Shown here: positions 6,829-27,686 of the stretch, one piece after another
Layout of the letters: every line of letters starts with the position of its first letter
How positions within the stretch are numbered: the stretch's first letter is position 1
The notes under the pieces: generated by a model
The model's database searches: none
Told to the model about the DNA's origin: nothing
Seen by the model: the letters and a program-made list of their open reading frames with translations, nothing else
Translations under genes and position numbers: made by a program
Source of the DNA: an uncultured Bdellovibrionales bacterium
Lineage (GTDB): Bacteria > Patescibacteriota > Minisyncoccia > Moranbacterales > UBA1568
Assembly (NCBI GenBank): GCA_964384235.1
Contig: CAYLJX010000001.1
Location: 305,709-369,708 of the forward strand
Length of the DNA: 64,000 nucleotides
Direction of reading: 5' to 3'

Positions 6829-6852
6829 ACAATTCACGAATGAGGTGAAATC

Positions 6853-8618: not shown

Positions 8619-8680
8619 TAAAGCGATAATTTTGCTATACTGAAAGAAAGGGAGGAAATACCCATTTTTTTGTAGTCTGT

Positions 8681-9421: not shown

Positions 9422-9461
9422 CTTTACAGACTTGATGGACCTTTCGACTTTACAGACTTCT

Positions 9462-10124: not shown

Positions 10125-10134
10125 TCAAAAACCT

Positions 10135-10488: not shown

Positions 10489-10496
10489 CACCTTTT

Positions 10497-11549: not shown

Positions 11550-11566
11550 ACGAAACGTCACATTCT

Positions 11567-11941: not shown

Positions 11942-11958
11942 GACAACCGGCCCCGATT

Positions 11959-12945
11959 TTACCCTTTGGAATATATCCTAAAAAACATCGGGACCAACCG
12001 AAGCCGATACATCAGGATGAAACCATACACCGCGACCCGGTTCCGCAGAGTCTCGCCCACCGGACGAAACAGGCTTATATTTTCGTTCTGAGCGAACTTC
12101 GGGAAATGATTTTTCAGCCAAGCGAATATTTTCTGGAATTCCGCGACCATCATCCGGCGATCGGAATGTCTCCCGATAAACAAGAGATACCAGACGACAT
12201 ATCTGATGAAGTAAAACTCGATCTCGCTCCTGCCAGTGACACGGAGATCGTTTAGCCTGTCATAACAGGAATCCAGCAGAAACATGACGTTTATCCCGCT
12301 TTTGATGGTCTTTTGACTGGTATTGGAAACCGAGGCGGTATTGTAGAACCAATTATATCCGCAATAATCAACGAAGGAGATCCGATCGGTCAGATTGATA
12401 GCCTGCAGATTGAAGTAGACATCCTCCCCGATATTATTGTCGAGAAACAATATACCGTGCCTGAGTAGGAATTCCCGTCGGTATATCTTGGCCCAGGGTG
12501 CCATCACCATGTATCTCGACCACGAGACATCCTGCAACCGCATCTCATATATCGTTTTTTCCCCGTCCGTGCGGCGATATCCCCCGATCACCATGTCGGC
12601 GCCGCTCCTTTCCGCTTCCGTCACGAACCGCTCCAGATAATCGCTCTCCACGTAATCGTCATGATCGATGAATATGACATATTTCGAATCGGCATACCCT
12701 AATCCCTTATTCCTGGTCCTTGCTACGCCTTGGTTCTCCTGATCAAAGATTTGTATCTTGTCAGGATACTTCTTCTTGTATGCTTCCAGTATCGTCATCG
12801 ATCCATCCGATGATCCGTCATTGATCAGAATGATCTGATACTCCCGGTATGTATTGACAAGGATGCTTTCCAGGCACTTCGAAATCGTTTTCTCGGAATT
12901 AAAAACCGGGATAATGATGGAAATCATTGTTTTCATAGGATTCAT
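11959..12945 (-). CDS. GT2 glycosyltransferase
   Basis: ISIIIPVFNSEKTISKCLESIL and ILINDGSSDGS motifs. ATG verified. The alternative start is M4. Confidence 0.85.
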   Translation of the reverse strand: MNPMKTMISIIIPVFNSEKTISKCLESILVNTYREYQIILINDGSSDGSMTILEAYKKKYPDKIQIFDQENQGVARTRNKGLGYADSKYVIFIDHDDYVESDYLERFVTEAERSGADMVIGGYRRTDGEKTIYEMRLQDVSWSRYMVMAPWAKIYRREFLLRHGILFLDNNIGEDVYFNLQAINLTDRISFVDYCGYNWFYNTASVSNTSQKTIKSGINVMFLLDSCYDRLNDLRVTGRSEIEFYFIRYVVWYLLFIGRHSDRRMMVAEFQKIFAWLKNHFPKFAQNENISLFRPVGETLRNRVAVYGFILMYRLRLVPMFFRIYSKG

Positions 12946-12972
12946 CCGTCAGACAAGAATCGTTCCCAACCC

Positions 12973-14346
12973 TCAGAAGTAGCTCGATATGTCCTTATAG
13001 TAGTATTCCACGATCTTGCGGAACACGAAGAAGAACGAAATCAGCAGAAAGATAAAGAGTGCTGCCGGAATATTGTTTCTGATCCATTCGCTTTTGAACC
13101 GAAATTTCGACTTATATATCGAAAAGATAATAAGCGGCGCTATGGCAAGAAGGTACCTCCCTTGGACACCGCTCACGCGATCGTTCCCAACCTGTGTCCA
13201 AACAAGATACAACGAAAGGAACACCAATATGAACTGGGCGAGGAATGTACCCAGGAGTACCAGCCTCTGCCTCGAATCAAGAAGAACTGTTTCCTCCTTG
13301 CTTCGCAAGATAAGAACCATACCGACAGCCATAAATATATACCATAAGTCAGGCAGAGCAGTTTTCAACCATCCGGGTTTCAGAAAAAATGTCTCAAAAT
13401 AGAAGAAAAAACCTTTATACAAGGAATGAAAGACTGCGTAAAGGAAATGCAAAGGATCTTTAAGGACGCCCATGGCCTGTGCGTTCGGATCTATCCCTTT
13501 CGGGAACGCTCCCGGCTCACTGAATACGAATCGGAGCAGAAGAAAGAATAATATGTTGGCCGTAATGAAACCTGTCGCATACATCCAATATTTTTTGTTG
13601 CCCTGGAATTTTGACTTCTTCAAAAGCAACACGAGAAAACTGAGCAGGAGATATCCTGATTTTACATTGAGCGCCAAAAGCGAAAGTCCGAGAAGTGTCC
13701 AACCCTGTTTCACTGTCAGTCGGTCAGGATCACTTGCCAGTTTGAGGATATACGCCGTAAAAAGAAGAATGAAGCTGATATGTAGCGCATCATAGCTCAC
13801 CGATGACAACTGCTGTACCACCGACGGCAGGAGGCCAATCATTACGAAAATGATTTTCCCGAACGGCGCGATACGGATAGCGAAATAAATACCCGTAACA
13901 GCGGCAAGAAAAACCAAAAGACGTCCGAGATAAAACGAAACAAGCGGAGGAGCATTCGTCATGAGTCCCAGCTTCAATCCGATAGCCTGCAAGAGGTGTC
14001 CGGCCGGATGAGCTCCGCATATGGCGGTCGGAACTGACACTCCCACCGAACTTGCCGGAACAGTGAGCGCTTCAAAGAGTTTTGATCCACTCACTTTTTT
14101 ATCATCTTCCCCCTTTATTTTCACAAGCTTGGTATCATCAGGAAGAGATACATAGTTTTCAGGAACTATGCCGGGTTCCCCGCTACAGCGGATCTGTCCC
14201 GAAGCGATAGCCAGAGATTTGAAGTAATGCGCTGGTTCATCCGGTACTTGGAACGGCGGATTCAGAAAAAGCATTATCAGGCCAAAGACGAGCGCGGGAT
14301 ACAGATACACCGTTTCCAGATTCAAGGATTTCAATCGTTCAAACAT
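12973..14346 (-). CDS. Polytopic membrane protein, GT-C-like (DUF2142/YfhO-like glycosyl-transfer or polymer-processing membrane protein)
   Basis: 457 aa with more than 10 TM helices. The N-terminal periplasmic motif PPFQVPDEPAHY is GT-C-like. Confidence 0.55.
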   Translation of the reverse strand: MFERLKSLNLETVYLYPALVFGLIMLFLNPPFQVPDEPAHYFKSLAIASGQIRCSGEPGIVPENYVSLPDDTKLVKIKGEDDKKVSGSKLFEALTVPASSVGVSVPTAICGAHPAGHLLQAIGLKLGLMTNAPPLVSFYLGRLLVFLAAVTGIYFAIRIAPFGKIIFVMIGLLPSVVQQLSSVSYDALHISFILLFTAYILKLASDPDRLTVKQGWTLLGLSLLALNVKSGYLLLSFLVLLLKKSKFQGNKKYWMYATGFITANILFFLLLRFVFSEPGAFPKGIDPNAQAMGVLKDPLHFLYAVFHSLYKGFFFYFETFFLKPGWLKTALPDLWYIFMAVGMVLILRSKEETVLLDSRQRLVLLGTFLAQFILVFLSLYLVWTQVGNDRVSGVQGRYLLAIAPLIIFSIYKSKFRFKSEWIRNNIPAALFIFLLISFFFVFRKIVEYYYKDISSYF

Positions 14347-14375
14347 ATAGCATTCATCAGTTTACCTATCACAAA

Positions 14376-14909
14376 CTATTCTTTCACCGGTTCGAGTTCA
14401 TAATATACTTCCTGAGCCGGAACGATCCAGCAGAAGAACCGCTCGTATACCAATGGTGCGAGATTCACGAGAAAGGTCAGCGGCTTATTCTCGAACGAAT
14501 ACCGGCTGGTCTTGGTGATATAGAAGAAGAGTTTCTTCCTGCGTATCCGGAAACGGACCGGGGTATAGAAGGACATCTCGTTATTCTCCGTATAATAGTC
14601 CATCGTGAAGTACCCGAAAAACCGCTTATGCGTCGGATCGGTATAGGCCCCGAAATTGGTGAAGTGCGGAACAAAAATTTTTATCACTCCACCCTTCTTG
14701 GTGATGCGGTAGAGTTCAGCCATGAGAGTATTCAAGTCCTCCATATGCTCGAGGACATGTGCCGTAAACACCTCATCGAAGGCATTATCCTCGAACGGCA
14801 ATCGTTTCGTGATATCGGCGACGACATCCACCCCCTCGAGCGGACACCCGTCCAAATTAACATATCCCTTCCGGATATCTTTCCCGCATCCCAGATTCAA
14901 TCGTTTCAT
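14376..14909 (-). CDS. Class I SAM-dependent methyltransferase
   Basis: LNLGCGKD motif I and the HVLEHM motif. Confidence 0.8.
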   Translation of the reverse strand: MKRLNLGCGKDIRKGYVNLDGCPLEGVDVVADITKRLPFEDNAFDEVFTAHVLEHMEDLNTLMAELYRITKKGGVIKIFVPHFTNFGAYTDPTHKRFFGYFTMDYYTENNEMSFYTPVRFRIRRKKLFFYITKTSRYSFENKPLTFLVNLAPLVYERFFCWIVPAQEVYYELEPVKE

Positions 14910-14988
14910 ACTTTACCGAAAAAGAGAATGTTATTTATCTTCATTGTACCACACGGAATCTCGTTCCTACTCCATCCAACCATCTCAC

Positions 14989-16134
14989 CTATTTAGGCTT
15001 TTCATGATCACGCAAAACCCATTCCATTGCCATTACCGATCTTTCCCACGACCATTCCTTGGCTGTCTGATATCCATTCTCAACAAGCCTCTCTCGAAGA
15101 GTTTTATCGTTCATCAATTTTAAGATAGATTCTCTCGCTCCCTTGGTATCTCTTGAGTCGACTACCAGCGCATTGACACCACCCCGGATATATTCGTCAT
15201 AACCTGTCACTTTCGCGACGACGACGGCGCAACCGCAAGCCATCGCCTCCATCGGCGGACCGAAGAACCCTTCGACACGGCTCATCTTGAGAAAGATGTC
15301 ACAGGAAGAATATATCTTTTTCATCTCATCGATAGGCACGTTCTGAAAAAACCGGTCATACCGCCAACCCGGCTTCGGTTTGCCTTGATTGCTGACGATC
15401 CAGAGTTCCGCGTCAAGATCTTTTACCGCAGCATATGCATCTTCCATTCCTTTGAAGGGAACATCGATTGATCCTTCGATAAGCACTCGCAATTTGTTTC
15501 CCTTCGGTTCCAACGGTTCAGTCTTATGAAACATCACTGGGTCAAGCCCATTGGGGACATAATACGACTCGTGCCCAAACTCCTCTTTGAGCCATTGTTG
15601 GATCCACTTTGCCTCAGTAACATACTCCAAGGGCAATCGATATGTCTCCCTTATTTTTTTACAGAGATCTGGATCTTTTTGGAAAAAACGACTTTCATCA
15701 GATTGAACGAAGTAAACCTTCCTTCGTGCCTTCGCCAAAGTAACTGAAAAGGCAGTGCTGTAGCTCGTCGCAAACAGTATATCCGTATCTCCGTTCTGCA
15801 AGATTTTTCGAGTCTGCACATAAGGAACTACTTTTACTCTTTGATTCGGAAACCAATCGCTATCATTAGTGGCATTCAAAGAGAGAAGTTCGACATCATA
15901 ACCTTTCTGATACAACCTGTTCGCATGCTGAAAAATCACAGCAATCCCTCCGGAAATACCGGTTCCCGGGATAAGAAAACGTATTTTCGTTCCCCATGAC
16001 TGCGCCCCGCCATCTGTGGTAGCAAAAATATTTTTTTGCCTACACCAGCGTTTATACTCTCCATCAAAAAAGAACCGCGTCCCGATCGTCGCGTCATTCA
16101 GATAAAGATAAACCTTCTTCAAAAATCCCTTCAT
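14989..16134 (-). CDS. GT4-family glycosyltransferase (group 1)
   Basis: 381 aa with C-terminal E-x7-E-like PMEAMACGCAVV motifs. Confidence 0.75.
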   Translation of the reverse strand: MKGFLKKVYLYLNDATIGTRFFFDGEYKRWCRQKNIFATTDGGAQSWGTKIRFLIPGTGISGGIAVIFQHANRLYQKGYDVELLSLNATNDSDWFPNQRVKVVPYVQTRKILQNGDTDILFATSYSTAFSVTLAKARRKVYFVQSDESRFFQKDPDLCKKIRETYRLPLEYVTEAKWIQQWLKEEFGHESYYVPNGLDPVMFHKTEPLEPKGNKLRVLIEGSIDVPFKGMEDAYAAVKDLDAELWIVSNQGKPKPGWRYDRFFQNVPIDEMKKIYSSCDIFLKMSRVEGFFGPPMEAMACGCAVVVAKVTGYDEYIRGGVNALVVDSRDTKGARESILKLMNDKTLRERLVENGYQTAKEWSWERSVMAMEWVLRDHEKPK

Positions 16135-16154
16135 GAAAATCCTAACAATCGGAA

Positions 16155-17267
16155 TTAGATGTTTCTCAAACTTCTCTTCAATATCCGGAAAATTCTCACG
16201 ACAAACCTGTACATTTTCTTTCTTATTTTCTTCATTACCGAGTACTGACTAGGATATCTCAAAGAATGATAGACATGATACCGAGAAATCAGACTCATGA
16301 AATCTTTCGGTAAAAATCCTATGGATTGCTCCAAATAACGCGAATTATCATTCAATGACATGAATCGAAAGAGCGTTTCTATTCCGAATGCCTGTACATG
16401 AGAATGGGGCGACGTAAGCGCAAGCCTGCCCAGATAATACGGGATGCTCCGATTATCCTCTGATCCGAAACGAACAACTTCTGGAAAAACTTCCTTCAAA
16501 ACCGCATATTCGCGTATATGCTTCAGATAATTCTCAAGAATAAAGAAGGTTTCGTTGTATTCCGCATTGATAGTCCGTTCATCATCGGTACTCGACAGAT
16601 TCGTATTATCAGACATTCTCCTGTACTGGATCAGCGGAACGGCATTAAATGCTGGTTTTGTCACGAACAATAACCTCACGTGATATTCGTAGTCCTGGGT
16701 CATTCTCAATAATGGATGGAAATATCCTACGGTATCGGCAACACTCTTTCTGAGAAACATTCCTGGAGAAACACAAGCGTTTCCCTCCAAATACATTGTC
16801 CTGAGCAATGCCTTCTGGTCAAACCGTTCCGGTGGAACGTAGCTGTATTTTTGAATGGAACCATATTCGTCAATCTGCTGCAATTGCCCATACAGCACAC
16901 CTATGTCCGTATGCTGCTCCATATATGCGACATCATGCGATAGTTTCTCAGGAAGAAAAACGTCATCACATGACATGAGACAGAGGTATTCTCCATGAGC
17001 ATTCCGCAGGGAATTATTGAGGGTATGCGATACGTGACGATTCTTGTCGTTTTGAAAAACCCTGATCCTTGGATCCTGAGCTTCGTACCGCTTCAATACC
17101 TCCATGCTCCGGTCGGTCGAGCAGTCATCGGTTATAATAAGCTCCCAATTCGGATACGTCTGACGCAAAACAGACTCGATAAAATACGGGATGAATTTCT
17201 CGAAATTGTAGCTTGAGGCCACTATCGAGACCAGTGGTTTTTTTTCACTCATACGCATTGATGACAT
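16155..17267 (-). CDS. GT2 glycosyltransferase
   Basis: [10 protein letters not shown] and ITDDCSTD motifs. In-frame ATGs at 17258 and 17252 would reduce the 23-nt overlap with the aminotransferase. Confidence 0.85.
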
Positions 17268-18342
17268 CCACGACTCTTCGCATCTCCTCTTCAGTGATCA
17301 CGGGAGAAATCGGGAGGCTGAGCACCTCCCGATGGATCTGTTCGGTAACCGGAAAATACAAATCATTCAACTCCGCGTAAGCGCGTTGCTTATGGGGCGG
17401 AACAGGATAATGTATCACCGTTTCAATCCCGTTTTCATCAAGATACTTCTTCAAGACATCTCTTTTCTTGCACCTGATAACAAACAGATGCCAGACATGC
17501 GAACCCTCTTCACTTGCCACATGAGGCAACGCAATAGACTTGTTTTTTATATGTGAGAGATAATAACGGGAAACAGCCCGCCTCTTCTCGTTGTCCTTAT
17601 CGAGCTCGGAAAGCTTCACCGACAAGATAGCAGCCTGAAGCTCATCCAGCCTTGCATTCATTCCCTTATAAAGATTCTCATATTTCACCAATGACCCGTA
17701 ATTTCTCAGACAACGAACTTTTTCAGCGATCATATCATCATCGGTCGTAACCATCCCCCCATCACCAAGTGCCCCGAGATTCTTCCCAGGATAAAACGAA
17801 AACCCGTTACAATCCCCAAATGAACCCACCCTTTTCTGCGCGTATATACTTCCATGAGCCTGAGCGCAATCCTCTATCACTTTTAAGTCATTCTTTCGTG
17901 CTATTTCCATGATAGAAGACATGTCACATGATTGACCATACAGATGAACCGGGATAATAGCCTTCGTTTTCGGCGTGATCGCTCGCTCGATATTTTTCGG
18001 ATCGATAGTATATGTCCTGATATCCGGCTCCACCAAGACAGGCTTTGCACCCGTCGAAGATACCGCAAGAACGCTTGCGATATAAGTATTTGAAGGAACC
18101 AATACCTCGTCACCATCAGATATGCCAACGGCCTTTAAGGAAATGATCAGTGCATCAAGACCATTGGACACGCCCAATGCATGCTTTACTCCGCAATATT
18201 CCGCAAAACGTCTCTCAAACTCCTCCCCCTCTCTCCCTAAAATATACCATCCGGAATCAAGAACTCGTTTCATCGCCGCATCGATTTCTTTTCGATAGCG
18301 ATCGTTTATCTTATGCAAATCAAGAAATTTGACCGTGTCCAT
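17245..18342 (-). CDS. DegT/DnrJ/EryC1/StrS-family PLP-dependent sugar aminotransferase (FdtB/WecE-like)
   Basis: 365 aa. Motifs include [16 protein letters not shown], and [15 protein letters not shown] containing the lysine. Confidence 0.9.
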
Positions 18343-18371
18343 ACGTGTTCCCGTATCTGATTATTTCTTTA

Positions 18372-19820
18372 TCATTCTTTCGTCTCATGATGCTCGTTCA
18401 GGACGTGCCGCGAAAGCCGGATACCCTTTACCAGCCCATAAGGCATTATAAACCTGACGAAGCGGTAGAGATACTGAAGAGGAAGCGAATAGAAAAAACG
18501 TTTTCCGAATCCATTGAGACCGCTCGCGATTAAAAGCACCATCCGAGCTACTGATCCGAAATACTTCTTATGTCTATTCCTTCGAAAGATACCCCCAAGG
18601 GAAAACGCCTTGTAATACCTTGCCACATCCAGTATTGCATACCGCCCCTCCTCCGAAGCTACTCTTACCAGAGGCACTCTTACAATTTCCTCTATTTCCC
18701 TGATCCGCACATCCCACGTATGGTATTTCCGCACCAGCTCGTTCGAACGCGACACGATCCTCTCTCTCAAGGCATCGTTCTTCAGGAGACGATCACAGAG
18801 TTCGTAGGCCTCTTGTGGCGTATCATAGAAAATATCCTTGGAGAGATCGCCGAGTTCTTCCGCAAGGTCTTTGGAGTAGTTACTCACCAGAACGGCAGAA
18901 GATGCCAAAATATCCATCACCCGCCAACTGTAACCGCTCTTAGCCTGGGCATGATTGATATTCAGCCCTATCTTCGATTCGTTATACATCTGCTGCGTCT
19001 GATCCAGGGAGTATACGCGCTTCGGATTATACGCCGCAAAGATGTCCAAGGAAGAGTCCAGTCCTATGTCAAGCCATCCTTCTCCGCCGTGAATATTCAG
19101 TCCGAGAGGAGCTATGCGGGCAAGCGTACCAGTTCGCATCGCTACGCTTCCAAAATCCAGAATCGTCTGATCGACATCAGGAATGAATGAAAACTGTTCA
19201 GACAATTTTTCAGGGCTCTCTTTCTCTTCAATAAGGGCTTTTACCAAATCGACATACTTTTCTTTGTACCGATGAAGTTTTTCTTTTTCCGCATGATTGA
19301 CAAACGGCGTCCCGATGAAACTTATATTGTGACTCTTCTTCATGTTAGCATCGGCCTCGACCGAAGTCGCCGGTCGTACCAAATGGCACTGTTCACGGGA
19401 GGCCCCGAGTATCTTCTGACAATCTGAAAGATCGCTCGTTTGGGAGCAAAAGAAGATATATCTTCCGACATTCGTTTTGAGGGTATCGATGTCGTTGAAG
19501 TGATGGAAATGATCCGCATCCCAAATGGCGATCGGACACGAAACGATCCTCTCCAATCCCTCAAAAGAGGAGTTATTGAAGGAAATAATAAGGTCCGGTC
19601 GAAACCGCCTCATATCGTCCATCAAAGCCGGCTTGTCTATTCCGGATTTCAAACGGTTCGACCCGCTCCATGGCCTCTTCAGAAAATCGTTTGTAATGAT
19701 TTCCAATACGGTATTCCCGTTTTTGGTCAGGGTCCTGATCAGACCCTCATAAAAGACAAGGGTCCTGTATTTCCCCTCCGTCTTTATTCCGCCGTAATGA
19801 ATGATGATGATTCGAGCCAT
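18372..19820 (-). CDS. CgeB-like / DUF3880-type glycosyltransferase
   Basis: 482 aa. The C-terminal half is GT1-like, the N-terminal half resembles the DUF3880 spacer. Confidence 0.5.
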   Translation of the reverse strand: MARIIIIHYGGIKTEGKYRTLVFYEGLIRTLTKNGNTVLEIITNDFLKRPWSGSNRLKSGIDKPALMDDMRRFRPDLIISFNNSSFEGLERIVSCPIAIWDADHFHHFNDIDTLKTNVGRYIFFCSQTSDLSDCQKILGASREQCHLVRPATSVEADANMKKSHNISFIGTPFVNHAEKEKLHRYKEKYVDLVKALIEEKESPEKLSEQFSFIPDVDQTILDFGSVAMRTGTLARIAPLGLNIHGGEGWLDIGLDSSLDIFAAYNPKRVYSLDQTQQMYNESKIGLNINHAQAKSGYSWRVMDILASSAVLVSNYSKDLAEELGDLSKDIFYDTPQEAYELCDRLLKNDALRERIVSRSNELVRKYHTWDVRIREIEEIVRVPLVRVASEEGRYAILDVARYYKAFSLGGIFRRNRHKKYFGSVARMVLLIASGLNGFGKRFFYSLPLQYLYRFVRFIMPYGLVKGIRLSRHVLNEHHETKE

Positions 19821-19856
19821 GAGTTTCTGATATCCTAAAAGATCACGAGCTATACT

Positions 19857-20564
19857 CTACAGCGTCGCGACGACGAAGATTTCAGCCGCTATTTCCGGGT
19901 ATTTTTCTCCAAGTTTCATAAACGCGGCGATCATCTGCGGCGTCCAGGTCTCATCAATCTGCTTGTTGGAAACAGGTTTCAGCCAATACCCTTCCATTTT
20001 TTTCACGGTAAGCCCCGCTTTCTCGAAATCTCTCCGGAGTTCCTTGGCGGAATACACTCTCTGATGCCCATGGTGGATATCCAGTTCATTGAGAGAGTTA
20101 GTCTTCTTCAGAAGACCCATCTCGACCGCCGCCTGCCTATGGATGGAATTAGCATTGGGTACCGCTACGAGAATGACTCCTCTTTTCTTCAGGAATCCCT
20201 TCACGTGTTTCAAAACACGTACCGGATCATGGACGTGTTCGAGCACGTGTCCCAGTACGATATTGTCGAACTTTTCATCCGTGTTGAAGTCTTCAAACAT
20301 GGAGTGATGAACCCTTATCTTCGGATACCTCCGTTTCAAGTCATCGCAAAACTTTTCGGCTCCTTCCACGACCGAAAGATCCCGGCCCGATTTGACGAAA
20401 AAATCAGTCATGACACCTTCCGCTGGACCAAGCTCCAGGATATTTCCCTTTCGAAGGTGTCGGGAAAAAACCACGTAGGAATATTCCACCATCGCGGCAC
20501 TCACCCCTTCGGCATATCGGGAATGCTTCGCTATCTTCTGCAAAGATTTCAAGTCATGAGACAT
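19857..20564 (-). CDS. Class I SAM-dependent methyltransferase
   Basis: ILELGPAEG motif I and DNIVLGHVLEHV. Confidence 0.85.
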   Translation of the reverse strand: MSHDLKSLQKIAKHSRYAEGVSAAMVEYSYVVFSRHLRKGNILELGPAEGVMTDFFVKSGRDLSVVEGAEKFCDDLKRRYPKIRVHHSMFEDFNTDEKFDNIVLGHVLEHVHDPVRVLKHVKGFLKKRGVILVAVPNANSIHRQAAVEMGLLKKTNSLNELDIHHGHQRVYSAKELRRDFEKAGLTVKKMEGYWLKPVSNKQIDETWTPQMIAAFMKLGEKYPEIAAEIFVVATL

Positions 20565-20566
20565 AT

Positions 20567-21565
20567 TCAGGCCCTTTCTATTAACTCAATGATTAGTCCG
20601 TTGGAAAACATGATGAAACATATTTCTCTTGAATTGAACGCCACCGAAGGCCTCTTGGGTGATACGATCCTTCCTCGGAATTTCCGTGTATACAGATGGA
20701 TAGCGACATCGATATCATCGACAAGATAGGCAAAATGATAGAACTTTACGCCCTTCTCGAGCCACACGTCAAGCGTATGGGACGAAGGCAGATTTTCCAG
20801 CAGCTCCAGTCTTGGTTGGTTTTTGGAGACCAGAAAAATGCCTTTTACCCCCTGAAGAGAGTCTTCAAAAAAACTCTTTTCCAGAACGTACCCGACCATT
20901 TCCCATATTTTTTGTTCCGTATCGATGCTCCGCGTCGCGATACCAATATGATGGAATTCCATCTTCGATATCTCTTGCTTAAGGAACCGATCATGCATCA
21001 TCTTGACGATCATTTCTGCCTTCTTAGCCATAGATCCACTACTCCAGATTTCCCGATCCACGAAGTGTTCAACCGCATCGTACTTTACTCCTTCGATTTC
21101 GAACTCTCCCGGCAATATCCCTTTGTTCAGGGCCCCGAACGAATCATGGAAAGACACGACTGCCACATTGTCTTTCACCGTTCTTGAGTACACGCTCTCA
21201 AGTCCGAGTATCTCAAATGCCACCCTGTACATAAGATAGGCGGACTCTACGGCAGCAAGACTCTCCGGAAGGATAATCCATCTCCCCCACTCGGCGATTT
21301 TCTTCTGCTGATCGATATCATAGATACCCACCAGCCCCTCGGGCTTCCCGGTCAGCATGTTCTCTATGACGAAATAATAGTCGTTATCCCGCTCATAATA
21401 CTTTTTCATCCAGTCTTCCTGAAGGGAGACATCCCGAGAAACAGCATGAATATACCTGTTACGCTCAGAATGTCCGGCACGGACATCCACGATAAAACCG
21501 GCGTCCTCGATCTCTGCCGGACGCAACAAATAAGAGTATCCTGAAATCGAAATCGCATGCTTCAT
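20567..21565 (-). CDS. Fusion protein with an N-terminal GNAT acyltransferase and a C-terminal VOC (glyoxalase-fold) domain
   Basis: 332 aa. The N-terminal part is GNAT-like and the C-terminal part is VOC-like (HHIGIATRSID...). Likely the N-acyl transferase of the amino-sugar pathway. Confidence 0.55.
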   Translation of the reverse strand: MKHAISISGYSYLLRPAEIEDAGFIVDVRAGHSERNRYIHAVSRDVSLQEDWMKKYYERDNDYYFVIENMLTGKPEGLVGIYDIDQQKKIAEWGRWIILPESLAAVESAYLMYRVAFEILGLESVYSRTVKDNVAVVSFHDSFGALNKGILPGEFEIEGVKYDAVEHFVDREIWSSGSMAKKAEMIVKMMHDRFLKQEISKMEFHHIGIATRSIDTEQKIWEMVGYVLEKSFFEDSLQGVKGIFLVSKNQPRLELLENLPSSHTLDVWLEKGVKFYHFAYLVDDIDVAIHLYTRKFRGRIVSPKRPSVAFNSREICFIMFSNGLIIELIERA

Positions 21566-21792
21566 GAAATTTCTTTTGATCTATGAAGGACCTCTTCGAT
21601 AGAACGTACGGATTTCATGGAGGGGATATCAGCACTGTCGATAGCCACGCCGAGCTCCTGCTCAAGACAGAATACGATCTCTATCATCTGCAGCGAATCC
21701 CAATACCGTTCATGATCCTTATCGAGCTCCAAGACCTCCTCTTTTGATTTCTTTAGCACGCTGGCCAATATTTCAACGATTTTTTCAGTCAT
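21562..21792 (-). CDS. Acyl carrier protein (PP-binding)
   Basis: 76 aa, acidic. DSLQMIEIV contains the phosphopantetheine-attachment Ser. Overlaps neighbours by 4 nt. Confidence 0.8.
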   Translation of the reverse strand: MTEKIVEILASVLKKSKEEVLELDKDHERYWDSLQMIEIVFCLEQELGVAIDSADIPSMKSVRSIEEVLHRSKEIS

Positions 21793-21806
21793 AACGATTT
21801 CTTAAT

Positions 21807-23444
21807 TTAATGATTATCGACCAGTATAGTCACGTGATTACTGTCTATATCAAAAAGATCCTGAGGCAACACGGCATACCCATCCTCCTTGAGTTCTTGA
21901 TTGGTTATTTTCTGCAACCATGCCCGAGCTGGCTGATTACGTTCTCCTTTCTTATAGTTAATTCTCACCTCCTGAGAAGCATGTTTCTGCCGCATTATGT
22001 CCATAGCCTTGAGCAGCATAACGTCTTCGATTTCTCTCCCGAGCGCGCGGCAACTCACGAATGCCTCTTCGATGACCAAGACACCGTCGGAAAAACTCGT
22101 GATAATCGTTCCTATCAGTCCGCTGTCGGAAAGTCTGTCCTTCAGGGAAAAATCAACGACGTCCTGAAAATCCCGTCGCATGCGCTCCAAGACCTCTTGC
22201 TCGTTGAGTCGCAGGTAAGAAAAGATAAACTGATTGGTTTTCCCGCCAAGTTCCGTTATTCTCGAAAGATTTTTTTCGTCGTTTACATGATACGAGATCC
22301 GAAGATCCAATTGCCTGATATATTCCTCTTGAGTCAACGACTGTCTCAGATGTTCCCTTGCCTCGTTTGACCGGAGATCAGCCAACCGTTTCGCATCATC
22401 CTTGGTAGTCCGCCATTTGAATATCCCTGGGAACGACATCAGGGCATGTATAGTGCTGGACGGATCACCACTGTCCGCCAAGATCATCCTGATATCAGGG
22501 AGATTTGACCCAACGGAAGATATCTCGCCGATATTGTCGTCGATAAACAGCATGCTGTCCGGAGCGATCCTCAAACGCTCCGCGATTTTCAGGATATTCG
22601 AGGCCTTTTTTTCCCAGGAAATTTCTACAGCAGAAAAATCTTCCCATGTCAGGGGGAAATCCTTTCTTTTTCTAAACATTTCTTGGACATCCTGGATCTC
22701 GTTTTTTGAGACAAGACTTAAAAAAAATCCTTTTTCCTTGAGTTTCTTGAGCTCTTCCTGAAGCCGCTTGTGTTCTTCGGTCAGAATAATACCTTCAGTA
22801 CCGTCTTCTCCTAGAACACCGGCATACAGCGTGTTGTCCAAATCAAGGACAATCGCCTTTATGTTTGGCTGGAAGATAGACGGGAGAAGCGACATTCCTA
22901 ACCATCGGGCCATTTCAAGGCAGGCTGCATTGCTCAACCTGGTAGCCGTAATCTTACGGAAACGTTCGTCATAAAAAGATTCCCCCATCTGGTTTCGGAT
23001 TACGTTTGTATCCGCGACATAACATCCGCTCATGCCGAGATTTTCTGAAAAAACAGCTTCTCCTCCTACTCCGACAACCAAGATATCTGCTTTAGTCTTC
23101 TTCCTCAGAAAACCGAGACGATCCCACAAGAAAGATCTGACATCAAAATCCTTTCCATAGTGATCAAAATCGATCCAGAGCAATACCAGATCGAGATTAT
23201 CGGGAATATCGGAAAAACTGAGACTATCATCATAACTCCCATACGAGAAACGAGCCTGTATTCCGGAGTATCCCAGAAACGATCCGATTACGGATGCTAC
23301 GGGTTCGAACGAGTGGTTTCTGTACACATAAATCCTTACAGTCCTTGTGATCTCCTGCTCAGGACATGACATCAGTTCCATCCTGTTCAAGGTTTTCTTG
23401 AACAGGACCTTCTGCAAATCGATTTTTGACATCAAAGCATTCAT
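21807..23444 (-). CDS. FkbH-like HAD-IIIC domain protein (loads a glyceryl-type unit onto ACP)
   Basis: A HAD DxDxT motif IVLDLDNTLY is present, as are FkbH-domain features. The start was chosen at the ATG that forms an ATGA overlap with the acpS stop. Confidence 0.75.
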   Translation of the reverse strand: MNALMSKIDLQKVLFKKTLNRMELMSCPEQEITRTVRIYVYRNHSFEPVASVIGSFLGYSGIQARFSYGSYDDSLSFSDIPDNLDLVLLWIDFDHYGKDFDVRSFLWDRLGFLRKKTKADILVVGVGGEAVFSENLGMSGCYVADTNVIRNQMGESFYDERFRKITATRLSNAACLEMARWLGMSLLPSIFQPNIKAIVLDLDNTLYAGVLGEDGTEGIILTEEHKRLQEELKKLKEKGFFLSLVSKNEIQDVQEMFRKRKDFPLTWEDFSAVEISWEKKASNILKIAERLRIAPDSMLFIDDNIGEISSVGSNLPDIRMILADSGDPSSTIHALMSFPGIFKWRTTKDDAKRLADLRSNEAREHLRQSLTQEEYIRQLDLRISYHVNDEKNLSRITELGGKTNQFIFSYLRLNEQEVLERMRRDFQDVVDFSLKDRLSDSGLIGTIITSFSDGVLVIEEAFVSCRALGREIEDVMLLKAMDIMRQKHASQEVRINYKKGERNQPARAWLQKITNQELKEDGYAVLPQDLFDIDSNHVTILVDNH

Positions 23445-23815
23445 AGAAGATTCAATGCGTCCCTGGAAACGATCACGCAAGCCACTGCGCTCATCTCATC
23501 ATGAGAAAGGCTAATTTTTGAAACGATACCTTCTTCTTTTACATATCGGACCTGGGGACAACCCCGTTCGTCGTGGTAAATCTCGATTTCATCCAGAGAA
23601 ACCTTCTCCGTGTCGCTCCCGATGCCTGATAATGCCTTTATAAAAGCTTCTTTGGCACAAAACCGGGCCGCGAAGTGCTGCTCCGGATACGACATCGAAT
23701 CACAGTAACGCCGCTCGCTTTCGGTGAAAATCTTTTCATAAAAAGAATAGGGCTTGTTCCTGAAACGGGAAATTTGCTCGATATCCACACCGATTGAAAT
23801 ACTTTCGAGACTCAT
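23441..23815 (-). CDS. acpS: Holo-[acyl-carrier-protein] synthase (4-phosphopantetheinyl transferase)
   Basis: GVDIEQISRF, FTESERRYC and FAARFCAKEAFIKA motifs. My hand translation shows a 1-nt frame inconsistency near 23759, but the ORF track gives an intact ORF. Confidence 0.8.
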   Translation of the reverse strand: MSLESISIGVDIEQISRFRNKPYSFYEKIFTESERRYCDSMSYPEQHFAARFCAKEAFIKALSGIGSDTEKVSLDEIEIYHDERGCPQVRYVKEEGIVSKISLSHDEMSAVACVIVSRDALNLL

Positions 23816-24234
23816 TTTTGCAACTGTCTTAAAAATTCCTCATAACTTCTGATGTAGTCGCTCTCGTTGTACTCCTCGCTCGCCAGTACCATCAGAGCGG
23901 CGCCTTTTGAAAAGTTTTTCATCTCCCTCCAGATCATTCCCTCTATATACAACCCCTTATCAGGCCAATCAAGCGTATACTCCTTTCGTTCCTTTCCGTC
24001 ATCGCAGACGACTACACATGAACCACTGATCGAAATAAGAAGCTGTTTCAGTTCCCTGTGAGCATGATGTCCTCGTACCGTTCCGGGAGTGGTATCGAAA
24101 ATGTAGTAAACTCGCCTGATATCGAACGGAACATGGTCCGTATTGGACTCTAATGCCACAAGGTTTCCCCGATCATCACCGATCGGTTTCAACCGTACCA
24201 CTTCCACTTTTTGCACTAGTGAACATTCATTCAT
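23812..24234 (-). CDS. dTDP-4-keto-6-deoxyhexose 3,4-ketoisomerase (FdtA/WxcM C-terminal cupin family)
   Basis: 140 aa with the typical RGNLVALE...VPFDIRRVYYIFD...RGHHAH region. Confidence 0.85.
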   Translation of the reverse strand: MNECSLVQKVEVVRLKPIGDDRGNLVALESNTDHVPFDIRRVYYIFDTTPGTVRGHHAHRELKQLLISISGSCVVVCDDGKERKEYTLDWPDKGLYIEGMIWREMKNFSKGAALMVLASEEYNESDYIRSYEEFLRQLQK

Positions 24235-24260: not shown

Positions 24261-25007
24261 TTATTCTTTTGACCCGCTTTGGCGAAGATATTCCTCACCG
24301 ACGCGCTTCGGATCTCCAAGCATCACTACCTTCCCTCCTTGTATCATTATTAGCCGGTCACAAAAATTCTCCGCAATTTCTATATCGTGAGTGACAAGAA
24401 GCACCGTCTTTCCCTTTTTCTTGTATTGATCAAAAATAGACAGGCATTTTTTCTGAAAATTACTATCACCTACCGCGAGGACTTCGTCCATAAGGAGGAT
24501 GTCGCGGTTGGCGTGGATGGAGACAGCGAAGGCGAGACGCACCTGCATGCCGCTCGAGTAGTTCTTGAGCTTCTGGTCGATGAAGCGCTCGAGCTCGGAG
24601 AACCGGACGATGTCGTCGAACTTCTCATCGATCTGTTTCCTCGTCATACCGAGAACCGTCGCGTTGAGATAGACGTTGTCCCTGCCGGAAAGCTCCGGAT
24701 TGAAACCGATGCCAAGCTCGAGAAACGGAGAGATCATCCCGTTCACCCGCACGCGGCCCTTGTCCGGCTGGTAGATGCCGGCGAGGATCTTGAGAAGGGT
24801 CGATTTGCCGCTCCCGTTTCGTCCGATGATACCGAAAAATTCCCCTTTCTTTACCTCGAACGACACGTCGTCAAGCGCCTGGAATTCTTCGTACGTCTTT
24901 TGCTTGAACGCCGAAACGACGGCTCCGCGCACGGAAGAGATCTTCTCATGGGGAATGCGGAAGGTCTTGGAGAGATGTTCGACTTTGATGGCTATTTCTT
25001 TGTCCAT
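24261..25007 (-). CDS. ABC transporter ATP-binding protein for glycan export (Wzt/TagH-like, no C-terminal CBM)
   Basis: Start at the internal ATG (MDKEIAIKVEHLSK...), since the upstream part of the track ORF overlaps wzm. Walker A GRNGSGKST, signature SSGMQ and Walker B LLMDE are present. Confidence 0.9.
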   Translation of the reverse strand: MDKEIAIKVEHLSKTFRIPHEKISSVRGAVVSAFKQKTYEEFQALDDVSFEVKKGEFFGIIGRNGSGKSTLLKILAGIYQPDKGRVRVNGMISPFLELGIGFNPELSGRDNVYLNATVLGMTRKQIDEKFDDIVRFSELERFIDQKLKNYSSGMQVRLAFAVSIHANRDILLMDEVLAVGDSNFQKKCLSIFDQYKKKGKTVLLVTHDIEIAENFCDRLIMIQGGKVVMLGDPKRVGEEYLRQSGSKE

Positions 25008-25015
25008 ATTTGCTT

Positions 25016-25795
25016 TTAGAGGTCTTCGGCTACTTTCGGGGCGAGCTTGCGATACGAGAGCATACTCAAGAAAAACACCGTGACGATGAGAGCGACGAAA
25101 ATACTCCCCTGCCAAAGTTCAGGAAAGTGACCGTTGATGAGCGATTCCTTGGTGAAGTGGATGATGAAGGCCATCGGATTCATGAGCAGGATCTGCTGGA
25201 TGTAGAGCGGCATGAGCTGGAGCGCATAAAAGACCGGCGTCGCGTAGAAGAGTATCTGGAGGAGCACCTCCCAGATCATCGAGAGGTCCCGGAACTTAGC
25301 GTAGAGCGGCGCCGTAAAGAGCGAGAAGGAAATGATGATGCCGTAGATGAGAAACGACGAGAAAACGAACAGTACGATCGCTCCCGGACTCGGCAGAAAC
25401 TGGTTCCAAACGAAAAACGCCACGACCACGGCCAGGTTCATGACGTAGATCATGGCGGAATTGAGCGTCGAAGCAAGAATGATCGTCCAACGCGGGATAT
25501 ATATCTTGGTCACGAGCTGGGACTTGGAAAGAAGCGACTGCATCCCGGCACTCGTCCCCTCGGAGAAAAAGTTGAACATTAGGATGGCCACCAGGAGCTG
25601 GAGCGAATAATACTCACCCCCCGCTATCCGGTTGGCAAAGATGGAAGAGAAGACGAAGTTGAGGATCGTAAAGGTGAGAAGCGGCTTCAGAAGGGCCCAG
25701 AGATAGCCTAGTACGGATCCGTGGTAACGGAGCTTGAAGTCCGTCTTGGCAAGCATCCAGATGAGCTCGTAATAATTTTCGTGTTGACGTGACAT
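25016..25795 (-). CDS. ABC-2 type transporter permease (Wzm-like)
   Basis: 259 aa with 6 TM helices. Confidence 0.9.
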   Translation of the reverse strand: MSRQHENYYELIWMLAKTDFKLRYHGSVLGYLWALLKPLLTFTILNFVFSSIFANRIAGGEYYSLQLLVAILMFNFFSEGTSAGMQSLLSKSQLVTKIYIPRWTIILASTLNSAMIYVMNLAVVVAFFVWNQFLPSPGAIVLFVFSSFLIYGIIISFSLFTAPLYAKFRDLSMIWEVLLQILFYATPVFYALQLMPLYIQQILLMNPMAFIIHFTKESLINGHFPELWQGSIFVALIVTVFFLSMLSYRKLAPKVAEDL

Positions 25796-25862: not shown

Positions 25863-26207
25863 CTAATCTTCCCTGTTATTCAGTGCCCAGTGGGCGAGGG
25901 TGTTGATGACGGAGAGGACGAGGGCGCCGAGGATGGCGACAAGGAGACCCTGCACCTCGAAGCCCTTGATGATGCCGCCGAGCATGTAGAGGAGGAAGCC
26001 GTTGAGGATGAACGTGAAGATCCCAAGGGTGAGAATGTTGATCGGAAGCGTGAGGATAAGAAGGACCGGTTTGACCGTGATGCCGATGAGCCCCCAGAGG
26101 AGCGCCAGGATAAGCGCCGTACCGAACCCTTTCACCGCGATACCGGGGATGATGTACGGGAGCGAGAGAAACGCAAGCGCCGAGACCAACCATTTGAGCA
26201 GCAGCAT
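25863..26207 (-). CDS. DUF360 / phage-holin-4-like small membrane protein
   Basis: 114 aa with 3-4 TM helices. The arrangement WALNN at the C-terminus is seen in this family. Confidence 0.65.
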   Translation of the reverse strand: MLLLKWLVSALAFLSLPYIIPGIAVKGFGTALILALLWGLIGITVKPVLLILTLPINILTLGIFTFILNGFLLYMLGGIIKGFEVQGLLVAILGALVLSVINTLAHWALNNRED

Positions 26208-26258: not shown

Positions 26259-27686
26259 TCACTTCTTGATGTTCTTGCGGCGGCGGACGACGGCCGTGAC
26301 GGTCTTGAGACAGATGAGGATATCGAGCCACAGCGACCAGTTCTCGATATAGAAGACGTCGAGACGGTACTCGTCCTCGAACGGCAGGTCGGAACGTCCC
26401 GAGACCTGGGCCATGCCGGTCACACCCGGCTTGATGGTGAGGAGACGGCGATGATACTCGGAATAGCGCTCCACCTCACGCTCCTGATGCGGGCGCGGCC
26501 CCACCAGACTCATCTCACCGCGCAGGACGTTGAAGAACTGCGGCAGCTCGTCGAGCGAATACCGCTCGATGAAGGCCCCGACTCTCATCTTGCGCGGATC
26601 GTTCTTGATCTTGTAGAGGACGCCGCCTTTTCGGGCGTTGTGTTTCTCGATCAGGTGCTGTTCGAAGGCGAGCGCTTCCTTGATATCCGGGTTTTCCTTG
26701 GTGATGCAGTATTTCCACCGCATGTAGCGGAACTTGTAGACGAAGAACTTGCGCCCGTTCTCACCGATGCGTTCGTTCTTGTAGATGATGGGCCCCTTGG
26801 GATCCTCGAGTTTGATGAGGAGGGCGATGACGAGCATCACCGGCGAAAAAAGCACCGTCAGGACAAAGCCGGCGAAGATGTCATAGAGGTGCTTGAGCAC
26901 CCTCCCCCAGCCGTCGAGCGGCGTGTGCTGGAGCTCGATCATCGGCTCGCCGTTGAAGATCTGCATGGAAAAACGCGACGTCTGGAGCGTCGTCGGGATG
27001 TATTTGTAGGTGATGTTGTTGATCTGACAGAAGTCGAGGAGCTTCTCCAGTTCCTCGTCCGTAAAGGTCGGGTCGCAGACGATGATCTCGTCGACACCCT
27101 TGGCATCGCGGATCGTCTTGATATGACGGAGGCTCAGGTCCTCGATCTGGTCCACGACACGGTAGCCGAGGGAGCGGTCCTTCATCAGGTACCGGCGGAG
27201 CGCCTTCATCTTGTCGTTGTAGCCGATGAGAAGCACCCGGTGGATGCCCGAGCCTTTCCTCAAGAGGAACCATTTCTGCAGACGCTGGAGGAGATAGCGG
27301 GCGAACACCACGTACACGACCACCAGCATCCAGCCGACCAGGATGATGAAACGCGAAGAAAACCATTCGCGCTTGAGGAAGATCGCGACGATCAAGATGA
27401 CCAGCACCAACGACGTCGCCTGAAAGACGCGGTAGGCTTCCCGCCAGAATTTGCGCGTCGTCCGCATGGCATAGAGTCCCTCAAGGGCGAACACGATGAG
27501 GAAGATCGGCAGCACGAACCCGACCACCTGGACGTAGTCGATGAGCGTAAAGTTGACGAACTTCGGGAGAAGATCGTACCCCTGCATCACCTCACGCGCG
27601 TACCATACCGAAAGCGCCGCCAGGGAAATCATGATGAGATCCACGGGGACTTGGACGGCACTGAAAAATATCTCCGATCGTTTCAT
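26259..27686 (-). CDS. Polyprenyl-phosphate hexose-1-phosphate transferase (WbaP/WcaJ-like bacterial sugar transferase)
   Basis: 475 aa with N-terminal TM helices and the C-terminal catalytic domain LVGPRP...PGVTGMAQV. Confidence 0.9.

Follow-up and report, generated by a model that had tools for sequence, protein, structure and literature searches.

Eight genes on the minus strand of a 64-kb stretch of DNA (contig CAYLJX010000001.1 of assembly GCA_964384235.1; hereafter the window), at positions 17245-24234, probably make a rare 3-amino sugar and add to it a glycerate-derived acyl group taken from a carrier protein. The key protein of this cassette is a fusion of a GNAT domain with a VOC metalloenzyme domain. 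We read it as the link between a donor arm, which is predicted to provide glyceryl on an acyl carrier protein (ACP), and an acceptor arm, which is predicted to provide a deoxythymidine diphosphate (dTDP)-linked amino sugar. The end product is most likely a dTDP-3-(glycerate-derived acyl)amino-3,6-dideoxyhexose, probably with gluco configuration and probably O-methylated, for a surface polymer exported by an ABC transporter. We are less confident about how the VOC domain acts, whether the product is methylated, and which stereochemistry it has than about the core claim.

N-acyl groups on rare amino sugars define epitopes of O-antigens, capsules, S-layers, and flagellins that phages and antibodies recognise. 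Whereas enzymes for attaching acetyl, formyl, and 3-hydroxybutanoyl groups have been identified, glyceroyl-type groups have no established origin. Together with at least 40 related loci, which come from both cultured and uncultured bacteria, the locus provides a concrete four-protein hypothesis. If true, it would connect FkbH, a polyketide-type building-block enzyme, to nucleotide-sugar chemistry and give the VOC domain a new role. It would also assign a function to the fusion family, whose 567 or more protein clusters (most of them ~326 aa long) are now named only “GNAT family N-acetyltransferase” or “RimJ/RimL.” The carrier would be a reduced-genome member of the Patescibacteria that invests in elaborate surface-glycan decoration.

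Architecture of the cassette

Domains were assigned with Pfam and NCBIfam profiles, and the bit scores were set against the curated cut-offs. An earlier note on this DNA had proposed an amino-sugar tailoring module at the same position. Its bounds coincide exactly with the ends of open reading frames (ORFs), and the domain assignments are far beyond chance. From 24234 downwards, the genes encode a 3,4-ketoisomerase, a holo-ACP synthase (AcpS), an FkbH-family protein, an ACP, the GNAT-VOC fusion, an S-adenosylmethionine (SAM)-dependent methyltransferase, a CgeB-like glycosyltransferase, and a DegT-family aminotransferase (Table 1). Stop and start codons overlap as ATGA at the FdtA/AcpS, AcpS/FkbH, and ACP/GNAT-VOC junctions, and the ACP gene lies 14 nt downstream of the FkbH gene. 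Translational coupling of the cassette genes, which the earlier note had described, is thus real. The eight genes sit within a longer minus-strand operon that runs from 27686 down to 11959.

The fusion had been proposed to stand in place of the usual acetyltransferase. Neither a left-handed β-helix (LbH) acetyltransferase nor a formyltransferase was found among the cluster ORFs scanned with Pfam and NCBIfam. A second N-acyltransferase besides GNAT-VOC was also not detected by Pfam among the ORFs of the operon and cluster.

The GNAT-VOC fusion

In the fusion, an FdhC-like GNAT domain (residues ~1-170) is followed by a long helix and by a metal domain resembling glyoxalase I and methylmalonyl-coenzyme A (CoA) epimerase (residues ~200-332). 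For the GNAT half (residues 12-146), the best sequence match in the PDB is FdhC (5kta, E 1.5e-18). FdhC is also ranked first when the AlphaFold model of the fusion, with a predicted local distance difference test (pLDDT) score of 89, is searched with Foldseek (target-normalised template modelling (TM) score 0.84, 28% identity). FdhC transfers 3-hydroxybutanoyl onto dTDP-3-amino-3,6-dideoxygalactose, and the structure 5ktc contains FdhC with CoA and 3-[(R)-3-hydroxybutanoylamino]-3,6-dideoxy-D-galactose bound. Hence, the nearest characterised enzyme performs this type of reaction on this type of sugar. The concern that the GNAT domain might be a plain acetyltransferase is not borne out, as its closest characterised relative by sequence and by fold is a hydroxyacyl transferase; the match to the PseH model is 23 bits against a cut-off of 93.

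The best match of the VOC half is glyoxalase I of Clostridium acetobutylicum (3hdp/2qh0, 5e-9). Its four metal ligands, H206, E254, H277, and E327, do not vary among 13 diverse homologues, and each of them aligns with a ligand in 3hdp/2qh0. Glyoxalase I forms a 2-hydroxyacyl thioester via a metal-bound enediolate, and methylmalonyl-CoA epimerase inverts the carbon adjoining a thioester. With this chemistry, epimerisation of glyceryl-S-ACP at C2 would be the simplest proposal for the VOC domain, and the main alternative is a pyruvoyl-type thioester formed by elimination.

In one homologue (P0009, 409 aa), ACP, GNAT, and VOC are in frame as one ORF. It is either a true triple fusion or the result of a stop codon lost at the ATGA junction.

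The acyl arm

FkbH- and OzmB-type enzymes dephosphorylate 1,3-bisphosphoglycerate and transfer the glyceryl group via a cysteine to an ACP. In the cassette protein, the motifs I (D201xD203NT), II (S246-K247-N), and III (D302-D303-N) and the C-terminal S464-C465-R466 are near-invariant in 20 homologues. These HAD motifs and the SCR cysteine are the arrangement expected for a glyceryl-ACP loader that dephosphorylates 1,3-bisphosphoglycerate. The start codon is set at the ATG at 23444, which makes the overlap with AcpS and yields 545 aa, the same as the call in the related locus L073; the ORF list has a TTG at 23480. For the frame 21807-23480, the TIGR01686 match covers residues 207-527. No family match was obtained for the N-terminal ~195 aa. 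In the PDB, the protein matches 3slr (4e-19).

To form hydroxymalonyl- or methoxymalonyl-ACP, dehydrogenases of the FkbK/FkbI type and a polyketide synthase (PKS) partner are required. No cluster ORF matched a dehydrogenase family in Pfam, and FkbK/FkbI-type dehydrogenases were not found among the scanned ORFs of the cluster or the rest of the window. The locus thus seems to lack the enzymes for hydroxymalonyl or methoxymalonyl units, which leaves a C3 group derived from glycerate as the simplest predicted product. Hence, judging from gene content, we do not assign the locus to an extender-unit pathway for hydroxymalonyl- or methoxymalonyl-ACP (FkbG-K type). The earlier note had left the acyl group as “glyceroyl or hydroxyacyl.” The glyceroyl part stands as the best-supported interpretation, and hydroxymalonyl and methoxymalonyl groups are disfavoured.

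The AcpS gene has ATGA overlaps on either side. As a part of the cassette, AcpS is seen only here and in L005-L007, the closest relatives, and the other ~60 loci gave no AcpS match; it is reasonable to infer that those carriers rely on their housekeeping AcpS. Patescibacteria genomes generally lack fatty-acid synthesis and would therefore have to bring their own AcpS within the cassette. This AcpS may compensate for an absent housekeeping AcpS in the reduced genome, and, more tentatively, its presence would suggest that carrier-protein machinery is kept mainly or only for decoration of the cell surface.

The sugar arm

The ketoisomerase resembles 5tpu (2e-43), 7n67 (2e-40), FdtA of Aneurinibacillus thermoaerophilus (2pa7, 3e-38), and QdtA (4zu7, 3e-30). 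The catalytic His pair H57/H59 is retained and aligns with the pair of FdtA. The positions which we take to determine the stereochemistry are Arg15/His95 in FdtA and Tyr17/Arg97 in QdtA (galacto vs gluco). In the cassette enzyme, they are Arg22 and Arg103, and this Arg/Arg combination is identical to that of 5tpu and 7n67. These two are presumably enzymes of the Qui3N (3-amino-3,6-dideoxyglucose, gluco) pathway. The C4 configuration is thus probably gluco, i.e., Qui3N. Cassette-linked isomerases of other species have R/R, R/H, or R/K at the two Arg/His positions.

In the FdtA homologues of L001, L009, L016, L018, L023, L027, L028, L030, L035-L037, and L052, the second His of the His-x-His motif is Asn, and the position of FdtA-His95 is Lys in this group. 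By these residues, they may represent a distinct isomerase subtype.

The closest PDB entries for the DegT protein are 7n63 (2.5e-147), WlaRG of Campylobacter jejuni (5u1z, 4.9e-145), and QdtB (3frk, 1.9e-124). WlaRG is the C3 aminotransferase in dTDP-Fuc3NAc/Qui3NAc synthesis (PMC7725333). With family scores and matches to solved enzymes of this strength, the earlier assignment of the gene pair to dTDP-3-amino-3,6-dideoxyhexose synthesis is upheld.

Occurrence of the cassette in other genomes

A scan of one genome per species yielded 65 related loci, in which homologues were sought by tblastn with the window proteins and E. coli RfbA and RfbB. Of these loci, 34 have an intact fusion; gene neighbours were counted on 26 of the latter, for which at least 15 kb of sequence is available. 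Cultured carriers of the fusion include V. ruber DSM 16370 (L018), M. tenebrionis BIT-26 (L027), A. peroxydans NBRC 13755 (L035), Ruegeria atlantica (L036), C. boliviensis E-1 (L024), and Lachnoanaerobaculum sp. ICM7 (L030). The 65 loci as a whole stem from Vibrio ruber, Mixta tenebrionis, Acetobacter peroxydans, Ruegeria, Clostridium boliviensis, and Lachnoanaerobaculum, and further Helicobacteraceae, Gastranaerophilales, Elusimicrobiales, and Acidobacteriota.

An FkbH gene lies within 10 kb in all 34 intact-fusion loci of these species-representative genomes. Among the 26 longer loci, homologues of FdtA are present in 23 and of DegT in 22, with both together in 22; RmlA occurs in 15 and RmlB in 16. 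The synteny of FkbH and ACP with FdtA and DegT, on which the earlier note had relied, therefore holds in many phyla. The gene order is also constant. FkbH is directly upstream of GNAT in 44 loci with a gap of 77-1046 nt, typically 240-350 nt, and in 43 of them, the gap contains an ACP-sized ORF (59-124 aa, usually 72-87). A search for a DSL-like motif was positive for 36 of the gap ORFs, nearly all of which have the serine motif W-[DEN]-S.

The two halves of the fusion keep different company when they occur alone. GNAT-only homologues (8 loci) are often beside FdtA/DegT and have FkbH in only one case, although in two acidobacterial loci of this kind (L040, L047), an ACP-like ORF is directly upstream. 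VOC-only homologues (13 loci) have FkbH nearby in nine cases and FdtA in none. Free-standing VOC genes of 125-139 aa are found beside FkbH in Pirellulales (L058), in Muribaculaceae (L059 and L062), and in L069. In Microbulbifer halophilus (L063, 4262-12661), within a 2799-aa ORF, a VOC-like segment immediately precedes an FkbH-like one, so that the VOC-FkbH pairing appears to occur also inside a megasynthase. This separation places GNAT with the sugar genes and VOC with FkbH, and the fusion is their meeting point. As VOC tracks FkbH, it is argued to act on the FkbH product rather than being a mere binding module for GNAT.

The methyltransferase encoded next to the fusion gene (best PDB match 2p7h, “hypothetical protein,” 1.9e-35) also travels with the acyl genes. 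Homologues (49-58% identity) are present in six of the seven loci in which GNAT and VOC are separate frames. In five of these six (L041, L042, L043, L046, L050), the gene directly follows GNAT/VOC, and likewise in L033; in L044, it is ~7.5 kb away from GNAT/VOC. Homologues are rare in the remaining fusion loci. This association speaks for the glyceroyl group rather than the sugar as the methylated part, and the protein probably O-methylates the acyl group. The earlier note had two methyltransferases adding further decoration of a general kind; for the adjoining one, this is refined to probable acyl O-methylation.

Proposed pathway and alternatives

The pathway would start from dTDP-4-keto-6-deoxyglucose, made by RmlA and RmlB from elsewhere in the genome. 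The FdtA/QdtA-type cupin would isomerise it to the 3-keto sugar, which DegT would aminate to a dTDP-3-amino-3,6-dideoxyhexose, probably with gluco configuration. On the donor side, AcpS would turn the dedicated ACP into the holo form. FkbH would dephosphorylate glycolytic 1,3-bisphosphoglycerate with its HAD domain, take the glyceryl group on Cys465, and hand it to the ACP, forming glyceryl-S-ACP. Before transfer, the VOC domain would act at C2 of this 2-hydroxyacyl thioester, with 2-epimerase activity as the simplest possibility. The FdhC-like GNAT would finally acylate the C3 amine with the group held on the ACP as a thioester, giving dTDP-3-(glyceroylamino)-3,6-dideoxyhexose, and the adjoining methyltransferase would probably O-methylate the glyceroyl group. 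The modified sugar would then enter a polymer linked to undecaprenyl, with WbaP as the initiating enzyme, the CgeB-like, GT2, and GT4 glycosyltransferases for extension, and Wzm/Wzt as the exporter. We propose ACP as the donor for GNAT because the ATGA overlap of the ACP and GNAT genes, the P0009 fusion, and the constant FkbH-ACP-GNAT order point to an acyl-ACP.

Several points weigh against this scheme. It is read as a whole from genes and sequences, the chemistry included, and our literature search found no glycan structure, either from this organism or from other cassette carriers. Searches of the 64 kb by tblastn (E. coli RfbA/RfbB as queries, E 1e-10) and Pfam detected neither RmlA nor RmlB; as both are common beside the cassette in related loci (15-16 of 26), the two genes presumably lie in another part of this genome. 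The gluco assignment stands on two residue positions and the presumed products of 5tpu and 7n67. In L029, L053, L055, L041, and L042, the cassette has no FdtA/DegT nearby. L041, from an Acidihalobacter metagenome-assembled genome (MAG; 8002-11735), encodes FkbH, ACP, GNAT, VOC in a separate frame, and the methyltransferase beside an ABC-F ATPase and a PLD-like protein, and no FdtA, DegT, or other sugar genes were found among the ten neighbouring ORFs scanned; L042 is a similar case. L038 has FkbH-ACP-GNAT without VOC. GNAT-only relatives occur without FkbH, and the donor of FdhC is an acyl-CoA, not an acyl-ACP. The VOC domain scores 36.1 bits against the TIGR03081 equivalog for methylmalonyl-CoA epimerase (cut-off 114.95) and is thus related to these epimerases but not a member. 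Lastly, bleomycin N-acetyltransferase (2zw6/2zw4), whose second domain we take to be substrate-binding and non-catalytic, aligns with the fusion model over 344 columns.

The CoA thioester used by FdhC, the nearest characterised relative, raises the question of whether GNAT is an ordinary acyl-CoA-dependent N-acyltransferase. In that case, the product of FkbH, ACP, and VOC would be another substituent derived from glycerate and placed elsewhere on the polymer, such as an O-linked glycerate or a lactyl-type group. The GNAT-only loci fit this explanation, as seven of the eight have no FkbH and they are often beside FdtA/DegT. The same applies to plasmid-borne relatives, which are plain GNAT genes: tblastn of plasmid records with the fusion returned GNAT-only partial matches alone. 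We nevertheless regard it as improbable. GNAT is covalently joined to VOC, which tracks FkbH and not the sugar genes. The stop codon of the ACP gene overlaps the GNAT start, and P0009 joins ACP, GNAT, and VOC in a single chain. In addition, the FkbH-ACP-GNAT order recurs in 44 loci, an ACP-like ORF is present even upstream of GNAT in L040 and L047, and no second transferase for an ACP-borne glyceryl group was found in the cluster.

A different question is what the VOC domain does to the thioester. By enolisation and loss of the 3-hydroxyl, it could alter the glyceryl skeleton before transfer to give a pyruvoyl or 2-hydroxyacryloyl thioester, and the N-acyl group would not be glyceroyl. The complete metal site of the glyoxalase I type is suited to forming an enediolate adjacent to the thioester, VOC and FkbH occur together in widely differing settings, one of them being the megasynthase ORF of L063, and N-lactyl on Fuc3N (3-amino-3,6-dideoxygalactose) has been reported in a bacterial polysaccharide (PMC9912281). 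On the other hand, no reductase from pyruvoyl to lactoyl was found in the cluster, and the C. jejuni locus with FkbH and an “epimerase” (see below) goes with a glyceric-acid derivative and not with a lactyl or pyruvoyl group. L038 keeps the rest of the cassette without VOC, so that VOC looks like an optional tailoring step and not a requirement for transfer. A change of the skeleton is therefore unlikely in our view.

Alternatively, the VOC domain could be a non-catalytic module for binding or dimerisation, as in bleomycin N-acetyltransferase, and the product would be plain D-glyceroyl. 2zw6 and 2zw4 appear to be a solved two-domain protein of GNAT plus VOC-like architecture, and the score far under the epimerase cut-off would also agree with a domain that has no such activity. 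Yet the four canonical metal ligands are invariant in 13 diverse members and align with those of an active glyoxalase I, and free-standing VOC genes stay beside FkbH where no GNAT fusion exists. We give this explanation a small but real chance, and a VOC domain acting at C2 remains our preferred reading.

To our knowledge, every FkbH enzyme with a characterised function supplies a polyketide or tetronate pathway. Together with the relative embedded in the megasynthase of L063 and the cassette of L041 without sugar genes among its ten scanned neighbours, this could mean that FkbH, ACP, and AcpS form a lipid or polyketide pathway that has nothing to do with the glycan locus around it. Neither ketosynthase nor acyltransferase nor condensation domains were found in any scanned ORF of the window. 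Considering also the tight operon coupling and the strong co-occurrence with FdtA, DegT, and RmlAB across phyla, this possibility is already disfavoured and has very little probability left.

A more general proposal goes beyond the window and is accordingly more tentative; we consider it possible but somewhat doubtful. FkbH-ACP-GNAT::VOC would be the first ACP-dependent nucleotide-sugar N-acyltransferase system, and VOC would be a new 2-epimerase/isomerase of glyceryl thioesters that always goes with FkbH. The system would be the general, so far unassigned genetic basis of N-glyceroyl and O-methylglyceroyl groups on bacterial amino sugars, spanning Qui3N/Fuc3N here and nonulosonic acids in Campylobacter and possibly Bacteroidales.

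Comparison with known systems

The individual parts of the cassette are known kinds of enzyme. Pathways to dTDP-Fuc3N and dTDP-Qui3N derivatives include FdtA-FdtB-FdtC (Aneurinibacillus thermoaerophilus), QdtA-QdtB-QdtC (Thermoanaerobacterium thermosaccharolyticum), WlaRA/RB/RG (C. jejuni 81116), and FdhC (Acinetobacter nosocomialis). The cassette shares with them the cupin 3,4-ketoisomerase and the DegT C3 aminotransferase, and its N-acyl step is assigned to an FdhC-related GNAT. In contrast to these pathways, GNAT is fused to a VOC metalloenzyme domain and set in an FkbH-ACP(-AcpS) unit, the predicted donor is a glycerate ACP thioester and not an acyl-CoA, and the LbH acetyltransferase or formyltransferase was not found.

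Glyceryl-ACP formation of the FkbH type is known from polyketide and tetronate biosynthesis (FkbH/FkbJ, OzmB/OzmE). As in these systems, TIGR01686 is matched above the cut-off, the HAD motifs and the SCR cysteine are kept, and a dedicated ACP adjoins. Unlike in these systems, no dehydrogenase that could turn glyceryl-ACP into hydroxymalonyl- or methoxymalonyl-ACP and no PKS or tetronate enzymes were found, FkbH has an extra N-terminal domain of ~195 aa, and the predicted acceptor is the amine of a nucleotide sugar.

The closest published parallel is the flagellin glycosylation locus of C. jejuni NCTC 11168. In its re-annotation, Cj1298 is a putative N-acetyltransferase, Cj1300 a SAM methyltransferase, and Cj1302 a HAD-IIIC phosphatase (PMC1899501 supplement). 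The gene cj1302 has been termed an fkbH-domain gene and cj1301 an “epimerase”; strains 12664, in which cj1302 is a pseudogene, and 12661, which has no cj1301, both lack the dimethylglyceric-acid pseudaminic acid derivatives of 11168 (PMC7099621). The cj1298-cj1304 region has the same kind of gene set as the cassette, and its product is likewise an O-methylated glycerate amide (2,3-di-O-methylglyceroyl, DMGA) on an amino sugar. In C. jejuni, the acceptor is a nonulosonic acid and the genes are separate with no GNAT-VOC fusion; the likeness is drawn from annotations alone and not from sequences. Presumably, this locus also has a FabH homologue and ACP genes. We found no paper with a biochemical characterisation of the C. 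jejuni DMGA pathway. A similar gene set to that reported around cj1298-cj1304 is seen in L059, from a Muribaculaceae MAG (4503-13946). It comprises ATP-grasp_ST, a metallo-beta-lactamase, DegT, a PglD-like LbH acetyltransferase, FabH, VOC, GT2, FkbH, and Acyl_transf_3.

Other glycerate amides on bacterial surface amino sugars are Pse5Am7Gra of Tannerella forsythia and GATDH (2-glyceramido-4-acetamido-trideoxyhexose) of Neisseria, and neither involves Qui3N or Fuc3N as in the cassette. For Neisseria GATDH, the ATP-grasp domain of PglB2 has reportedly been implicated, which would be a different activation chemistry. The genetic basis of the N-glyceroyl group in T. forsythia was declared unknown and a major challenge in 2017 (PMC5378307).

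Bleomycin N-acetyltransferase (2zw4, 2zw6) appears to share the two-domain architecture of GNAT plus VOC-like domain with the fusion. It differs in having only 13-14% identity, a root-mean-square deviation of 21 angstroms, and another domain arrangement, and the four metal ligands are invariant in the fusion family.

The literature search, whose coverage left out most subscription journals, found no link of FkbH or ACP to nucleotide-sugar N-acylation and no glyceroyl group on Qui3N or Fuc3N; a published characterisation of the cassette was not found either. An ACP-fed GNAT, the fixed FkbH-ACP-GNAT::VOC architecture, and the VOC-FkbH partnership thus appear undescribed.

Export genes and further glycosyltransferases

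The genes for an ABC-2 permease, an ATPase, and a WbaP-type transferase adjoin the glycosyltransferase genes (Table 1). All models for TagH and for galactan Wzt/Wzm were below their cut-offs. Wzm/Wzt export and initiation by WbaP, as suggested before, would fit the gene content. The true start of the ATPase is probably an ATG near 25007. Homologues of the CgeB-like protein come after GNAT(-VOC) in L005, L007, L013, L017, and L038, which makes it a candidate transferase for the modified sugar; no relative was found in the PDB.

Table 1 Genes of the cassette and of the adjoining parts of the operon; scores are from Pfam (PF) and NCBIfam (TIGR) profiles
Feature	Position	Strand	Evidence
FdtA/QdtA-type dTDP-4-keto-6-deoxyglucose 3,4-ketoisomerase (cupin, 140 aa)	23812..24234	-	PF05523 173.6 bits, E 2e-51
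Holo-ACP synthase, AcpS-type phosphopantetheinyl transferase (124 aa)	23441..23815	-	PF01648 70.3 bits; TIGR00556 79.8 bits (cut-off 45.35)
FkbH-family glyceryl-ACP loading enzyme, predicted (545 aa)	21807..23444	-	TIGR01686 302.3 bits (cut-off 146.65); TIGR01681 HAD-IIIC 80.8 bits
Dedicated acyl carrier protein (76 aa)	21562..21792	-	PF00550 30.4 bits (cut-off 20.8); serine motif YWDSLQ
GNAT-VOC fusion (332 aa)	20567..21565	-	PF13302 45 bits; PF13669 56.9 bits (cut-off 27)
Class I SAM methyltransferase (235 aa)	19857..20564	-	PF13489 77.1 bits
CgeB-like glycosyltransferase (482 aa)	18372..19820	-	PF13524 57.1 bits, in C-terminal half
DegT-family pyridoxal phosphate-dependent C3 aminotransferase (365 aa)	17245..18342	-	PF01041 409.5 bits
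Wzt/TagH-like ABC exporter ATPase	24261..25115	-	PF00005; TagH 182-197 bits, galactan Wzt 175 bits, all below equivalog cut-offs
Wzm-like ABC-2 permease	25016..25795	-	PF01061 56.2 bits
Phage_holin_4_2-family membrane protein (114 aa), between Wzm and WbaP	25863-26207	-	Same place in L005
WbaP-like polyprenyl-phosphate sugar-phosphate transferase (initiating)	26259..27686	-	PF02397 203.8 bits; PF13727
Downstream operon part, low G+C	11959..17267	-	Pfam assignments
GT2	16155-17267	-	Pfam
GT4	14989-16134	-	Pfam
Second methyltransferase	14376-14909	-	Pfam
DUF2142 membrane protein	12973-14346	-	Pfam
GT2	11959-12945	-	Pfam

Host and remainder of the window

The G+C content is 0.44-0.47 over 12-24 kb of the window and ~0.55 in the flanks. 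The low value in the variable part of the locus fits horizontal acquisition, and the surface-glycan decoration was probably acquired in this way by a reduced-genome member of the Patescibacteria. For PheS (30557-31597), the best 120 matches have 70-81% identity, and the named ones are MAGs of Candidatus Moranbacteria/Moraniibacteriota or Patescibacteria. Hence, the host belongs to the candidate phyla radiation. The closest relative of the cassette, L007, carries the label “uncultured Bdellovibrionales,” possibly through a mistake in binning or labelling.

An Rfam scan detected RNase P RNA only and no riboswitch or leader ahead of the operon. The RNase P RNA is of class A (27717-28066, minus strand, 119.6 bits) and lies between pheT and the WbaP gene. 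It is part of the remainder of the window, which holds housekeeping genes (pheST, tyrS, secDF, recJ, dnaJ). In SecD (34231-35907, minus strand), residues 147-233 form an inserted peptidyl-prolyl isomerase domain of the PPIC type (Rotamase), which separates the N-terminal subdomain of P1 from its head subdomain.

A second glycan gene group with normal G+C content is located at 433-11549. It contains GT4, UDP-glucose dehydrogenase, GT2, a GNAT gene (4510-5124), three GT2 genes, and DUF2304. The GNAT gene adjoins a gene for an acetyl-CoA hydrolase/transferase (5212-6567), and a short-chain dehydrogenase/reductase (SDR) resembling enoyl-ACP reductase is encoded at 6853-7680. The GNAT at 4510-5124 was considered as the true N-acyltransferase and rejected: it scores 24.6 bits against the fusion, is 12 kb away, and belongs to this other gene group.

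At the far end (52443-63230, minus strand), the window encodes a series of large proteins that are probably surface-located or secreted. Two of its ORFs (423 and 449 aa) had no match in Pfam. The others include a protein of 968 aa with four Laminin_G_3 stretches, one of 737 aa with fn3, and one of 490 aa with He_PIG.

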